The position numbers and the translations under genes are program-made. Below are positions 18,400 to 39,584 of a DNA stretch of 64,000 nucleotides, in pieces. Source of the stretch: Enterobacteria phage phiC600P9; the sequence record MZ681930.1; one strand, given 5' to 3'. The number at the start of each line of letters is the position of its first letter. Positions within the stretch are counted from its first letter, which is position 1. The notes under the pieces are model-generated. The model was given only the letters and a program-made list of their open reading frames with translations. It did not search any database and was not told the origin of the DNA.

Positions 18400-18429
18400 A
18401 TAGTATCACACTACTACCCTGCTGTAAAC
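18400..18429 (-). promoter_or_regulatory. T4-type early promoter
   Basis: Minus-sense GTTTACA, 17 nt, TGTGATACTAT. Confidence 0.6.
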
Positions 18430-27967: not shown

Positions 27968-28294
27968 TCAATTAGAAAATAAATTTATCCAAGATTGTTC
28001 TTTAATTAAAAATGGCTCAGAATCATATGCCATTAAACTCTGTGTGATTAGTCCTTTAAAAGGCCCATCAATAAATTCCATGGTAAAATATGGAATTTTA
28101 TTCATTAGCCGTGCATTAGGAGCAGTGCACAAAACTCTGCATCCTTTGAATACGCCTTTTTGTAATTTGTATTGCTTAGGATAAAATTCGCTTAAAATGT
28201 TATTTTTTGCCAAAATTTCAAAATGATTCACCAATTTATTTTTAATAGTTTTTGGTGAAAAATAAAGATATTCGAAAAGCTGAGTGTCTGTCAT
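27968..28294 (-). CDS. Hypothetical protein
   Basis: Track ORF 27968..28348 shortened to an internal ATG next to the upstream stop. Confidence 0.45.
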
Positions 28295-28833
28295 CATTGC
28301 ATTCCGATTACGAAAAACTGTGGACGAGTAATACCACCAATACAACATTTAATATTACAGCAGCAGTGTACAGTGTCAATATGGACACTATAAATCTTAT
28401 CCATATCAGGAGATTTGACAGGCTCATCAATTATATACAAAATTCGCGAAAGCTTTAAACCTCTGAACTTGCTTCCTTTATTACCGATAAAACTGCGCAC
28501 AGAATCAGTAAATAAACGAAAACGTATATCATCATTAGAATAACGCGAAAATTCCTTTTTGATGCTATTTGCAGAAATTTTAGCGTAAGCTGAAGTATTA
28601 GAAAGAACAATAACTGTTCCACCGTCATACAACCAATTAGCGGCAAAATTAGTTACTGCAGTTGATTTACCGGATTGACGTCCACCATCTAGTCGAAGTG
28701 TGCAATACTGCTTAAGTAAGTCTTCAAATGGTGGGATATAATCGTTTTTACAAATTTCTTCTACTCTAGCATCAGAATAGTGTGTAAAAGCATTCATCAG
28801 GGATAGATAAGGACCAGTTAAAAATGTTCTCAT
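28294..28833 (-). CDS. P-loop NTPase-like protein
   Basis: 179 aa; Walker A GGRQSGKST and Walker-B-like LYIIDEP; Cys-rich C-terminus; ATG verified. Confidence 0.5.
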   Translation of the reverse strand: MRTFLTGPYLSLMNAFTHYSDARVEEICKNDYIPPFEDLLKQYCTLRLDGGRQSGKSTAVTNFAANWLYDGGTVIVLSNTSAYAKISANSIKKEFSRYSNDDIRFRLFTDSVRSFIGNKGSKFRGLKLSRILYIIDEPVKSPDMDKIYSVHIDTVHCCCNIKCCIGGITRPQFFVIGMQ

Positions 28834-28972: not shown

Positions 28973-29446
28973 TTATTTGAACGATTTAACGTACTGAATA
29001 GAACCTTTACTATTCACGAAAGCGATTTTACCATTTTTATTATACATGGTAGCAGTACGCTGATAGCCATAAGTTTGCTTACCAGATTGATAACCAACTA
29101 ATGCAAAATTATCTTCACCCATTTTATTCTGTTTAGCGCGAATGCGTTCATGACCATGTGCCATAAGAACCTTAGCATCACCAGTTGCAATGGATCGACG
29201 AGTTTTTTCATCTTCAACTGTATTAACAAAGTCGTCAAATGAATCAAATTTAGCATGAGATTTATTATACAGTTTTCCATCTACTGCATAATTATATCCC
29301 TGTACATCCATCTCAACTTCTGTACCATCATCCAATACAGCAGTGATTTTCTGTCCTTTTTTAAATTTCAAAAGATCAGTAAAAGATTCAGCAATAATTT
29401 GAGAATTAATAGCTGCTTCAGTAATAAATTCTTGATATGTTTTCAT
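28973..29446 (-). CDS. Internal head protein (CTS-bearing; ipIII-locus)
   Basis: 157 aa; N-terminal MKTYQEFITEA capsid-targeting sequence with LxE/IxE protease-site pattern; upstream of e as in T4. Confidence 0.7.
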   Translation of the reverse strand: MKTYQEFITEAAINSQIIAESFTDLLKFKKGQKITAVLDDGTEVEMDVQGYNYAVDGKLYNKSHAKFDSFDDFVNTVEDEKTRRSIATGDAKVLMAHGHERIRAKQNKMGEDNFALVGYQSGKQTYGYQRTATMYNKNGKIAFVNSKGSIQYVKSFK

Positions 29447-29462
29447 GTGTATCCTTTAATTT

Positions 29463-29780
29463 TTATTCTTTAGGGAAGTTTTTAGAATATGCATCATAAA
29501 GCTTATTTCCAATACGGCGGAAAACTCTAGCCGCAAAACGATTTTCTGGGTTTTTAATCATGATTTGCATCATATAAGTACCCGCGTCAGAAAGAGCTTC
29601 TTCATAGTACCCGTTAATTTCTTTAAGAGTCCTACGTTTACCACCAGGACCATCAACAGTGATTTTCCATTTACCTGTAGAAGTGCGACTTGGCGGCTCA
29701 ACTTGTTCAATCCAGATATAACCGCCTTCTACACGTTGTCCTGCAGCAGATTCTGCAATAAATTCTTTATAGGTTTTCAT
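29463..29780 (-). CDS. Internal head protein (CTS-bearing; ipII-locus)
   Basis: 105 aa; N-terminal MKTYKEFIAES; early promoter 38 nt upstream. Confidence 0.7.
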   Translation of the reverse strand: MKTYKEFIAESAAGQRVEGGYIWIEQVEPPSRTSTGKWKITVDGPGGKRRTLKEINGYYEEALSDAGTYMMQIMIKNPENRFAARVFRRIGNKLYDAYSKNFPKE

Positions 29781-29851: not shown

Positions 29852-30382
<531 letters not shown>

Positions 30383-35403: not shown

Positions 35404-35479
35404 TGGTCGAGGCAGTAGGGATCGAACCTACGACCCAGGACTTAGAAGGTCCTTGCTCTTCCTTCTGAGCTATGCCTCG
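35404..35479 (-). tRNA. tRNA-Arg (anticodon TCT)
   Basis: Hand-folded cloverleaf: acceptor CGAGGCA/TGCCTCG, anticodon loop CTTCTAA, T-loop GGTTCGATCC, encoded CCA. Confidence 0.85.
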
Positions 35480-35483
35480 TATT

Positions 35484-35558
35484 TGGCGGACGTGATAGGA
35501 TTCGAACCTATAACCAATCGCTTAACAGGCGATCGCTCTGCCATTGAGCTACACATCC
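35484..35558 (-). tRNA. tRNA-Asn (anticodon GTT)
   Basis: Acceptor GGATGTG/CACGTCC, anticodon stem ATCGC/GCGAT with loop CTGTTAA, T-loop TTCGAAT, CCA encoded. Confidence 0.8.
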
Positions 35559-35562
35559 AAAT

Positions 35563-35649
35563 TGGTGGGGAGTGATGGAGTCGAACCACCCGAGTCGCAA
35601 TGACAATGGATTTACAGTCCACACCGCTACCTCTACGGGATAACTCCCC
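35563..35649 (-). tRNA. tRNA-Tyr (anticodon GTA), long variable arm
   Basis: 87 nt; acceptor GGGGAGT/ACTCCCC, anticodon loop CTGTAAA, long variable arm, CCA encoded. Confidence 0.8.
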
Positions 35650-35658
35650 AAATTAATT

Positions 35659-35733
35659 TGGTGGCCCTGGGTGGAATTGAACCACCATCTGGCGATTATG
35701 AGTCGCTTGCTTGAACCTTCCAGCTACAGGGCC
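35659..35733 (-). tRNA. tRNA with anticodon CAT (Met or lysidine-modified Ile)
   Basis: Acceptor GGCCCTG/CAGGGCC, anticodon loop CTCATAA, T-loop TTCAATT, CCA encoded. Confidence 0.75.
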
Positions 35734-35734
35734 T

Positions 35735-35810
35735 TGGTGCTGATTGACGGAATCGAACCGCCGACCTTCTCATTACAAGTGAGTTGCTCTACCTACTGAG
35801 CTAAATCAGC
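35735..35810 (-). tRNA. tRNA-Thr (anticodon TGT)
   Basis: Acceptor GCTGATT/AATCAGC, anticodon loop CTTGTAA, T-loop TTCGATT, CCA encoded. Confidence 0.85.
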
Positions 35811-35815
35811 AAAAC

Positions 35816-35905
35816 TGGCGGAGGCGATAGGATTTGAACCTATGAGTCGCCGGAGCGACTGCCGGTTTTCAAGACCGGTGCATTAAACCACTCTGCCACG
35901 CCTCC
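35816..35905 (-). tRNA. tRNA-Ser (anticodon TGA), long variable arm
   Basis: 90 nt; acceptor GGAGGCG/CGCCTCC, anticodon stem CCGGT/ACCGG with loop CTTGAAA, CCA encoded. Confidence 0.85.
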
Positions 35906-35908
35906 AAA

Positions 35909-35916
35909 TATTTATA
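35909..35916 (-). promoter_or_regulatory. Late promoter motif TATAAATA upstream of tRNA-Ser
   Basis: Exact TATAAATA on the minus strand, 4 nt upstream of the tRNA-Ser 5' end and overlapping the segB-like stop. Confidence 0.35.
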
Positions 35917-36562
35917 TATTGCTAATTTGATTTAGAATTCTTTTTGCTTGAGTATGACTTACGCCAATATGCTTAGCATATTTAGATAATTCACCACGCT
36001 TAGAAAAATCATATAATTTAGAAATTTCTATTCTTCTTTTTCTTTCATCCGCAGAAACTTTTGCTTCGTTTGCTTTTGCTATTTTACGTTTAGCTTCTTG
36101 AGAATGATTTTTACCAGCAAAGCCATTCTTCATTAATCCATTTGAAGACCATCCTTTTAATTTTCCGTTAGAATGTGCCTTTTTAACACCCAATGAAATT
36201 AATTCGCGTTGCTGATCTGTCATAGGATAATTATTTATATGGTCCCATCCACCTTCTCCGCCAAGTTTTAAATTATACACATCTGGTCTATTTAAAAACT
36301 CTTCTGTGACAATATTTTTCTCGGCTTCAAGCATAGATTCTTTATCATCAAAATACTCTAATATTTCTTTAGAGAAATTTTCTATACCATACTTGTCTTG
36401 GGCTCTTTTTAATAATTTACCAGAACCCATATATCCATCATCTAAATTTTCGGTAGAATGCACACCAATATAAATTTTATTATTAATTTTATTTGTTATT
36501 TTATAAAGATAAAAATGCATATCAGTCCCTAATAAAGAACTGAGCGTCTCACGACGAGTCAT
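35912..36562 (-). CDS. segB: GIY-YIG homing endonuclease (SegB-like)
   Basis: 216 aa; GIY-YIG motif YLYKITNKINNKIYIGVHS ... GYMGSG; basic C-terminal DNA-binding region; located between the two tRNA subclusters as T4 segB. Confidence 0.85.
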   Translation of the reverse strand: MTRRETLSSLLGTDMHFYLYKITNKINNKIYIGVHSTENLDDGYMGSGKLLKRAQDKYGIENFSKEILEYFDDKESMLEAEKNIVTEEFLNRPDVYNLKLGGEGGWDHINNYPMTDQQRELISLGVKKAHSNGKLKGWSSNGLMKNGFAGKNHSQEAKRKIAKANEAKVSADERKRRIEISKLYDFSKRGELSKYAKHIGVSHTQAKRILNQISNI

Positions 36563-36566
36563 AAAT

Positions 36567-36640
<74 letters not shown>

Positions 36641-36645
36641 AAATT

Positions 36646-36732
36646 TGGTGCGAGAAGTGGGACTCGAACCCACAAGGAAATCATTCCGCAGCATTTTAAG
36701 TGCTGTGCCTTTACCAATTTGACCATTCTCGC
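36646..36732 (-). tRNA. tRNA-Leu (anticodon TAA), long variable arm
   Basis: 87 nt; acceptor GCGAGAA/TTCTCGC, anticodon stem CAGCA/TGCTG with loop CTTAAAA, CCA encoded. Confidence 0.85.
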
Positions 36733-36733
36733 G

Positions 36734-36806
36734 CTGGGAATAAAGGACTCGAACCTTTGCATCCTGGAATCAAAATCCAGTGCCTTACCAACTTGGCTAA
36801 TTCCCA
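36734..36806 (-). tRNA. tRNA-Gln (anticodon TTG)
   Basis: Acceptor TGGGAAT/ATTCCCA, anticodon stem CTGGA/TCCAG with loop TTTTGAT; 3' CCA not encoded. Confidence 0.8.
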
Positions 36807-36903
36807 ATTATTAACAAAGGCTCTCAAGCAAGAACCCTTGATGATAGAGGGTATTAATCAGTGCGATATGAGTTAATAATAACAAATAATTCTTAAAGCA
36901 TAT

Positions 36904-37191
36904 TTACCATTTATGATAATACATATTTACGATGCATTCAAGACCCAAAGGATTCTTGAAAATATCATATTCAAGAGGACCTTTTTCTGTTTCAATAAAG
37001 AAATCAAAATTTACTGTATTAAATTTACGGTCTTCCTTTACTAATTTAACCTGCGAAGATGAACGATCAATGTAAACCTTTTCAACTTCAAAACATGTTA
37101 AAATGCCATAATCATCAATCAAGGCTTTAGCCGCATCTTGATCATATTTATATCCATTTTCAACGGACGATACTTTCGCATAAAGAATCAT
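36904..37191 (-). CDS. Hypothetical protein
   Basis: Track ORF, 95 aa. Confidence 0.5.
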   Translation of the reverse strand: MILYAKVSSVENGYKYDQDAAKALIDDYGILTCFEVEKVYIDRSSSQVKLVKEDRKFNTVNFDFFIETEKGPLEYDIFKNPLGLECIVNMYYHKW

Positions 37192-37193
37192 TA

Positions 37194-37583
37194 TCAGCCT
37201 TCATCAACAATAGTATGCGTATTGGCATTTACGATTTGCCACCAATCAAAGCGATTAGAACCATAATCTGGTTTGTTTTCATTTTCTTTGATAATGTCAC
37301 GAAGTTCATCTTCAGTAGCGGCTTTCGCGATTAAATCAGCATATCCACCACGAGGATAATAATTATCACCTGCAAAAAGTAAAAAGTTTGGTTTAATGTT
37401 ATTGAACTCTTCAAGAGTAATAACTTTTCCTGACGGTTGAACAATCTCTACATATTTATACCCCAATTTTTGAGCAGCATCTACTGCTCCAAGCAAAGTA
37501 TCATGAGCCCATCCAATTTGACAACCTGGCTTTTCAGATGGATTAGCCTGATAATCCGCATACACTTTGTACATTCTATTCAC
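37194..37583 (-). CDS. Hypothetical protein
   Basis: Track ORF, 129 aa. Confidence 0.5.
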   Translation of the reverse strand: MNRMYKVYADYQANPSEKPGCQIGWAHDTLLGAVDAAQKLGYKYVEIVQPSGKVITLEEFNNIKPNFLLFAGDNYYPRGGYADLIAKAATEDELRDIIKENENKPDYGSNRFDWWQIVNANTHTIVDEG

Positions 37584-37761
37584 CTTTAGAAATTTTATCC
37601 ATAACGATAGCGATTAAACCAATTAAAAATGCTACTACAAGTGAAAACACATTTTCTGCTGTAGTTAATAATCCGCATATAAATCCAACAAACATTGAAA
37701 AACTAAAAGCGGAAGCAGAAATTGCAATAGCAACATTTCGAATTAATTCACAACGTTTCAT
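37576..37761 (-). CDS. Small membrane protein
   Basis: Track start 37821 is TTG inside the promoter; ATG 37761 has SD GAGGAGAA; hydrophobic core. Confidence 0.5.
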   Translation of the reverse strand: MKRCELIRNVAIAISASAFSFSMFVGFICGLLTTAENVFSLVVAFLIGLIAIVMDKISKGE

Positions 37762-37789
37762 TTTATTCTCCTCTGTAGTTGATAGGGTA

Positions 37790-37819
37790 ATAGTATCACT
37801 ACTAAAACCCCGTGTAAAC
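37790..37819 (-). promoter_or_regulatory. T4-type early promoter
   Basis: Minus-sense GTTTACA, 17 nt, GTGATACTAT; near-identical to the promoter at 38120..38149 including the upstream A/T tract. Confidence 0.6.
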
Positions 37820-37831
37820 AACTTTGTGAAA

Positions 37832-38089
37832 TTATTTTAAATCTTCTAATCGTTTCTTCATCTTAGAACCGTTCTTAGCGATTTCGCCTGCATCAGAGCA
37901 TAATGCTAAAAGCGCTTTAACTTTAGTTTGGTCTCCTTTAAAAGATGAAGGATCGACTGCAGCAGCAAGTTCTTTAATACGAGAGAAAAGACGCTCAGCT
38001 TCAGCTAAAGCCATTCCAAGCTTTACTTCCATACCATGAGAAGATTCAGTAATAGTAGTTTTTGTAGCAAACTCTTTGAAAGTTTTCAT
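37832..38089 (-). CDS. Internal-protein-like protein with capsid-targeting sequence (ipI locus)
   Basis: 85 aa; N-terminal MKTFKEFATKTTITESSHGME; occupies the position between 57B and the tRNA region where T4 has ipI; ATG verified. Confidence 0.6.
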   Translation of the reverse strand: MKTFKEFATKTTITESSHGMEVKLGMALAEAERLFSRIKELAAAVDPSSFKGDQTKVKALLALCSDAGEIAKNGSKMKKRLEDLK

Positions 38090-38119
38090 TTTATTTTCCT
38101 AATTAATTTTGATGAGGTA

Positions 38120-38149
38120 ATAGTATCACTACCTCATCAGTATGTAAAC
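38120..38149 (-). promoter_or_regulatory. T4-type early promoter
   Basis: Minus-sense GTTTACA, 17 nt, GTGATACTAT, 31 nt upstream of the ipI-locus gene. Confidence 0.6.
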
Positions 38150-38161
38150 AACTTTATGAAA

Positions 38162-38858
<697 letters not shown>

Positions 38859-38859
<1 letters not shown>

Positions 38860-39584
38860 TATAGTACCTTTAGTGTATTTTTAATTTTAGAAAAAAGTTC
38901 TTCAAGAGAACCATCGTTTGTAATTACTAAATCGCCATCACGAATTGGCAATCCAGCTTCTGTAATATGAGTATCATTGGATTTTTGACCAGGACGAACT
39001 ACATGAATTACTGTAGCACCCATCGCCCTAGCCGCATCCATTTCATGATCTTGACGAGTATCAGGAACGATATAATAATCATAACCTGAGTTAAATTTAT
39101 CAAGATAATCTAAAGCAAATAATTTTACCCAATACATGCGGTCGAAGTTATTAACAATCAAATCCGTACCTAGGGCTTGCATCAGACGACGGACTGACCA
39201 TTGATCTTCAATATTATTTATAACGTCAATAATCTTATTAAATGCTACGGAATTAACTGATTCTTGTCCTTCGTCATCAAAAACACACACACCTTTAATT
39301 GGGCTTTTACCGTTAAGATAGCAAAATGCTTGTTCCATAATCGTGATTACTTCTGATTTAGTCAGATTTAAATCAGTCTCACGATCATAGTCAATTCCTT
39401 CAAACTCCTTACGAGTTAAGCAAGGATAGTCAGTGTTTGCTGCGAATACGCCCCATGCATAAGCCAATGCATCTTTAATAGGACCAGCAAGTTGATATTT
39501 AACTGCAGAATAATTATTCATGATAAAATCTGCAGTAGTATCTTTTCCACTACGCTTTACACCACTTAAAAAGATTAGTTTCAT
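38859..39584 (-). CDS. 1: Deoxynucleoside monophosphate kinase
   Basis: 241 aa; P-loop GVKRSGKDT; length and sequence match T4 gp1. Confidence 0.92.

Follow-up and report, generated by a model that had tools for sequence, protein, structure and literature searches.

The gene studied here lies at 37832..38089 on the minus strand of the window, by which we mean the whole 64,000-nucleotide stretch of DNA that was analysed. The list of open reading frames (ORFs) gives it an ATG start, 85 codons and a stop codon, in exact agreement with the 85-residue protein of the preliminary description, and the encoded protein starts MKTFKEFATKTTITESSHGME. The gene directly upstream, the left anchor of the locus, is 57B (38162..38617, minus strand), which occupies the T4 57B position and encodes a 151-residue protein that matches the Acb1 anti-CBASS phosphodiesterase family over its full length (Pfam PF23474, E 2.6e-60). 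As 57B is a member of the Acb1 family, the internal-protein (IP) cassette discussed below adjoins a known counter-defence gene. Past 57B on the map are 57A, gene 1 and gene 3. The right anchor, at the T4 and T2 trna.4 position, is a homologue of trna.4 (37576..37761, minus strand) that encodes a 61-residue predicted membrane protein (PHROG 1692, E 6e-35). On that side there follow homologues of trna.3 and trna.2 and then nine clustered tRNA genes (35404-36806), with a homing-endonuclease ORF interrupting the cluster. T4 ipI occupies exactly this slot between 57B and trna.4, and hence the flanking homologues bear out the earlier placement of the gene at the T4 ipI position, between 57B and the tRNA region.

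The ORF that interrupts the tRNA cluster (216 residues, 35912-36562, minus strand) splits tRNA-Ser (35816-35905) from tRNA-Gly (36567-36640) and lies at the T4 segB position. The same stretch is labelled 'homing endonuclease' in phiC600P9, where a later start codon gives a gene of 609 nt versus 651 nt here. The tRNA set is unlike that of T4 in that it includes tRNAs for Asn, Tyr and Met, whereas none was detected for Ile or Pro.

We identify the 85-codon ORF as ip5, which belongs to the interchangeable IP cassettes of the T-even phages. Alignment to known alleles of the ipI locus matched the window protein to Ip5 of phage RB15 with 100% amino acid identity; the RB15 record, of 1,448 bp, bears the title 'DNA for Ip5, Ip9, Ip7, Ip8'. 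The protein also matches PHROG 3499, 'internal head protein', from end to end (E 1.2e-49). The name ip5 is used for this gene in the T2 and RB14 records, and the naming of Ip5 as an internal head protein allele reportedly dates to a 1994 paper in EMBO J. The phiC600P9 record MT630408.1 is 100% identical over 2.8 kb and labels the ORF 'hypothetical protein'. The ORF is preceded by an AGGA ribosome-binding site and by an early promoter of the sigma-70 type. Together with the synonymous bias of the differences among alleles, these signals argue for a genuine gene rather than a chance ORF. DNA at least 90% identical to the ip5 ORF is present in 251 phage records, versus only 164 records for T4-type ipI DNA (57B at 95% identity or above is found in about 500 records). 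Thus, Ip5 is a commoner occupant of the slot than IPI and is no unusual variant: it is a known, previously described allele that is more widespread than T4 IPI. Scans of Ip5 with Pfam, NCBIfam and PADLOC gave no significant family. The record of phage Killian (OQ446694.1) labels the ORF 'MazF family toxin-antitoxin system protein', which has no support from Pfam, NCBIfam or PADLOC and looks like an annotation error.

The ip5 genes of RB15 and T2 share with the window gene the slot right after 57B, the leader and the flanking promoter repeats. T2 Ip5 lacks one alanine in the loop between helices and otherwise differs in nothing of substance. The content of the slot varies, with ip5 standing alone here versus ip5-ip9-ip7-ip8 in RB15 and ip5-ip7 in T2.

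Relative to T4, ip5 is a clean cassette replacement of ipI. The window and T4 DNAs are 98% identical from the end of 57B through the promoter, the stem-loop and the ribosome-binding site. Identity is 65%, with a 12-nt indel, in the leader-coding part, 35% in the part coding for the mature protein, which amounts to no real homology, and 93% from the stop codon onward. A repeat search found that ip5 is bracketed by the two copies of a 69-nt direct repeat, which are 83% identical and spaced 330 nt apart. The upstream copy (38109..38177) covers the 57B stop codon, the promoter and the stem-loop, and the downstream copy (37779..37847), where T4 homology resumes, covers the ip5 stop codon and the early promoter of the trna.4 homologue. 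A promoter scan found TTTACA-17-TACTAT with an extended -10 TG in each repeat copy, the match in the downstream copy being at 37818-37790. The early sigma-70-type promoter of ip5 (38120..38149, minus strand) consists of GTTTACA, 13 nt and GTGATACTAT (an extended -10 element), in a region that is ~99% identical to that upstream of T4 ipI. Overlapping the -10 box is a 13-bp stem-loop (38110..38139, minus strand) with a computed RNA folding energy of -20.5 kcal/mol (z = -4.1), and none of 200 shuffled sequences was as stable. The window contains the arrangement GTTTACA-N13-15-GATACTAT three times, versus zero times in shuffles. The third exact copy of the early-promoter motif, GTTTACA-N15-GATACTAT at 18400-18429 (minus strand), lies at a distance from both IP loci and may indicate the border of another cassette prone to shuffling.

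The elements at the ip5 borders match the promoter-early stem-loop (PeSL) type. PeSL elements are proposed mediators of modular shuffling (Arbiol et al. 2010, PMC2839356), and the same authors tie them explicitly to the elements of Repoila et al. 1994 at both IP loci (PMC2839356). No RNA family was detected in an Rfam scan of 36800-39000, and a scan of 37000-39000 for intrinsic terminators found none. The 57B-trna.4 slot has the marks of an IP locus in that it is polymorphic and carries conserved, promoter-containing flanking repeats; the other IP locus of these phages lies between e and denV. The modularity of the IP locus is illustrated by a metagenomic T4-like contig (ERZ27235411 k99_1591), which has an array of five consecutive leader-bearing ORFs between 57B/Acb1 and trna.4 (L008 3346-4833). 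Ip9-like, Ip5-like and Ip8-like proteins are among the members of this array, the Ip5-like protein being the third and starting MQTYQTFITE.

The second IP locus of the window (28973-29780, minus strand) is downstream of the lysozyme gene e (29852..30346, minus strand) and contains two more leader-bearing ORFs. The ORF at 29463..29780 encodes 105 residues beginning MKTYKEFIAE|S and belongs to PHROG 3966 ('unknown function'), and that at 28973..29446 encodes 157 residues beginning MKTYQEFITE|A and belongs to PHROG 3155 ('internal virion protein'). Since these ORFs share only the leader with T4 IPII and IPIII, the phage has none of Ip1-3; T2 likewise lacks ip1-3. Just after the IP genes, at the T4 denV position, is a 179-residue ORF (28294-28833, minus strand; PHROG 1488, unknown function) with a P-loop-like GGRQSGKST motif and weak similarity to the ATPase region of the terminase large subunit (E 2e-6).

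The preliminary description had the protein keep a N-terminus resembling a capsid-targeting sequence (CTS) and bear no resemblance to T4 IPI past it, and both parts of this claim held. Ip5 has a capsid-targeting leader of the MKT(Y/F)(Q/K)EF type in the form MKTFKEF, which is common to Ip5 and T4 IPI (NP_049749; PDB 2JUB; PHROG 4363), and residues M1, K2, T3 and F7 are invariant across Ip5, IPI, Ip7, Ip8 and Ip9. The resemblance to T4 IPI also takes in the slot, the near-identical upstream promoter and stem-loop, the full leader type MKTFKEF...TITE| and the size and pI of the mature form. However, BLASTP aligns residues 1-22 only (14/26 identical) and nothing beyond the leader. High identity to IPI in the mature region was looked for by BLASTP and was absent, no homology to the mature 76-residue region of IPI was found, and the two proteins fall into different PHROGs (4363 versus 3499).

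The Ip5 leader (residues 1-15, 38045..38089, minus strand), MKTFKEFATKTTITE, comprises the capsid-targeting sequence plus a T-rich linker and ends at a putative prohead protease site, I-T-E|S. The recognition motif of the T4 gp21 prohead protease is (L/I)-x-E, and the end of the Ip5 leader has this motif as I13-T14-E15, which matches TITE19 of T4 IPI. T4 IPI reads MKTFKEFTSTTTPVSTITE|ATLTSEV..., and the solved IPI* chain (2jub) comprises residues 20-95. As the chain begins at residue 20, cleavage of T4 IPI is placed after T-I-T-E19. Three natural leaders are found upstream of Ip5-family mature sequences. The window protein has the join MKTFKEFATKTTITE|SSHGMEV, pEC-M719-6WT.2 and metagenomic relatives have a canonical 10-residue leader, MKTYQTFITE|SSHGMEV, and RB69 ORF127c has a third leader, MKTYMNFYQNLSLNE|ATDTF, that ends in L-N-E. 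Given that all three leaders end in (L/I)-x-E and that the first two join an identical Ser-Ser-His-Gly sequence, we infer that the prohead protease would cut Ip5 between Glu15 and Ser16 (ITE15|S16). A gene for a Peptidase_S77 prohead protease is present in the matching phiC600P9 genome, just outside the window.

Two more motifs of the (L/I)-x-E type, LAE30|A and IKE40, lie in the mature part of Ip5. The RB69 homologue has both in matching positions, whereas mature T4 IPI* has no internal motif of this kind. Given these two motifs, the final form in the virion could be shorter than 70 residues. They would also fit a scheme in which Ip5 enters the prohead and is then cut at L-A-E|A and I-K-E into short, scaffold-like peptides, with no folded protein being delivered. 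We consider such a fate extremely unlikely, as both motifs belong to a long helix predicted with confidence and fit a hydrophobic/acidic helical pattern, so that they may be inaccessible, and selection spans all 70 residues, the C-terminal EIAKNG...RLE block included.

The predicted mature protein, Ip5* (residues 16-85; 37835..38044, minus strand), has 70 residues, a mass of 7.5 kDa and a pI of 9.2, with 13 K+R versus 10 D+E. Structure prediction, which the preliminary description had proposed as a check, gave an all-helical AF2 model with a fold unlike that of IPI*. When no alignment was supplied, AF2 returned a helical hairpin with a pLDDT of 79. Given a 6-sequence alignment, AF2 placed helices at residues 20-44, 54-63, and 67-84, with a pLDDT of about 90 for residues 20-85, and left the leader disordered (pLDDT about 50). 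The IPI* structure has two beta-sheets flanked by helices (PMC3012670); hence the folds of Ip5 and IPI* are predicted to differ, the Ip5 model being a generic helical hairpin or bundle rather than the compact alpha/beta fold of the T4 IPI family. A fold search with the model gave no informative structural neighbour, with 2jub absent among the matches listed, and a sequence search of the PDB with Ip5 found nothing, 2jub included. The fold being generic and without an informative neighbour, the structure gives no hint of a target, and nothing in the Ip5 sequence names one.

An exhaustive HMMER search with the mature sequence against 1.84 billion cluster representatives returned two clusters only, both from T4-like phages, one being that of Ip5 and the other the RB69 type, at 48% identity and E 5.5e-4. 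A word-indexed homologue search returned near-identical Ip5 clusters only. As the HMMER search added just the RB69-type cluster, it offers no bacterial or distant relatives from which to draw conclusions. By tblastn a further 228 phage records carry the RB69 type, with an identity of about 54%. The internal head protein of the RB69 ORF127c type (NP_861817; Mosigvirus) belongs to the same PHROG 3499, is 48-54% identical to Ip5 in the mature part and shares with it the blocks KLGxALxEAExLxxRIxELA and EIAKNG...RLE, which are invariant across the Ip5 and RB69 clades; K23, E30, E32, R37 and E40 are among the invariant residues. The RB69 protein differs from Ip5 in being encoded at the second IP locus (e to denV), in its leader, MKTYMNFYQNLSLNE|, and in having a C-terminal extension. 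In the RB69 genome (NC_004928.1) the Ip5-family gene is at the e/denV locus (L005 2938-3219), and the 57B locus (L013 650-1310) contains ipI together with another gene annotated as encoding an internal head protein. This gene arrangement argues that the mature Ip5 module is mobile between the two IP loci and can be found alongside IPI, and as RB69 carries both ipI and an Ip5-family gene, Ip5 and IPI would not be redundant.

The window gene differs from RB15 ip5 by 6 synonymous and 0 non-synonymous changes. Comparison with a variant of 78% DNA identity gave 29 synonymous and 7 non-synonymous codon changes. Judged from these codon differences, ip5 is under strongly purifying selection. The changes and indels cluster in the loop between helices, at residues 43-49.

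Selection of this kind bears on the view that Ip5 has no specific target and serves as a basic filler or DNA counter-ion of the head core, its cassette turning over neutrally. The mature protein is indeed small and basic (pI 9.2), the IP genes are non-essential in T4 and a search for targets with ip4-10 came up empty (PMC12373910). A polycation of this sort would not be expected to show strong purifying selection on specific residues, as is seen for Ip5 in the variant with 78%-identical DNA and across two genera. The invariant charged residues and the EIAKNG motif exceed what a generic polycation needs, the net charge is modest (13 K+R versus 10 D+E, as given above), and every IP that has been characterised is a specific inhibitor (PMC12373910). 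Hence, we consider a filler role very unlikely.

The preliminary description presented T4 IPI* as an inhibitor of the GmrSD restriction system, and this is borne out by the literature: Ip1 blocks the GmrSD of E. coli CT596 (PMC12373910). Silas et al. (2025) found that Ip2 blocks GmrSD-ECOR21 (BrxU) and that Ip3 blocks the GmrS1/GmrSD2 pair of ECOR17 (PMC12373910). The three proteins are mutually unrelated in sequence, and each inhibits a distinct GmrSD without cross-protection (PMC12373910). Ip5 is like T4 Ip2 and Ip3 in that these belong to the class of leader-bearing, non-essential, injected head proteins encoded at hyperplastic loci, although their mature sequences are unrelated to that of Ip5. 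The same study assayed ip4-10 against GmrSD variants that are active on T-even phages, 8 active variants in all, and none of these was inhibited reproducibly (main text and Supplementary Fig. 9; PMC12373910). Moreover, T2 is restricted by GmrSD-ECOR21 and GmrSD-ECOR17 (PMC12373910). As the T2 slot encodes ip5 and ip7, natively delivered Ip5 would not block either of these enzymes. Our literature search found no report of Ip5 in virions or of its injection, the name 'Ip5' overlapping with work on inositol phosphates.

The proposal that the product is a candidate injected anti-defence effector thus stands in part. By analogy with Ip1-3 such a role is plausible and is the standard inference of the field, but the published assays of ip4-10 gave no reproducible GmrSD inhibition, and the target of Ip5 is presumably another than that of IPI. 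Taken as a whole, the observations are probably, though by no means certainly, best explained by an IP cassette whose product is packaged, cleaved and injected and acts as a specific inhibitor of a host defence protein. Extrapolating from T4 head assembly, the leader would direct Ip5 into the scaffolding core of the prohead, where the gp21 prohead protease (Peptidase_S77) would remove it after Glu15 (I-T-E|S). Mature Ip5* would then stay with the packaged DNA and be ejected into the cell alongside it, as in T4. During DNA entry Ip5* would most likely bind and neutralise a specific host defence protein, as Ip1-3 do. The target would be none of the three enzymes blocked by Ip1-3, and our leading guess is a type IV/GmrSD-family subtype outside those assayed.

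A non-GmrSD target is a serious alternative. Here Ip5 would be packaged and injected as above and would act on a defence class other than GmrSD/type IV or on a function in host takeover. The failure of ip4-10 to inhibit reproducibly any GmrSD variant assayed (PMC12373910) points in this direction, but the GmrSD family is very diverse and just 8 active variants were assayed. The all-helical predicted fold, so unlike that of IPI*, might be taken in the same sense, yet a difference in fold says nothing about target class, as Ip1-3 are themselves mutually unrelated. The occurrence of the family both in glucosyl-hmC phages (Tequatrovirus) and in the arabinosyl-hmC phage RB69 is consistent with a target of another kind, as is the adjacency of ip5 to Acb1, a non-restriction counter-defence gene. 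Against this, all three IPs with known targets inhibit enzymes of the GmrSD family, and we therefore rate a target outside that family as possible but rather unlikely.

The gene is an ordinary, previously described feature of T-even phages. The anti-defence reading of Ip5 is the textbook expectation for this locus, and published experiments on the hypothesised role have so far met with no success. Ip5, as the commonest occupant of the ipI slot, might tentatively be considered an injected protein that inhibits some defence system other than those of the GmrSD family and does so by way of the conserved helical surface KLGxALxEAExLxxRIxELA / EIAKNG, although we doubt that this is the case. If true, the internal-protein arsenal of the T-even phages would reach beyond type IV restriction.
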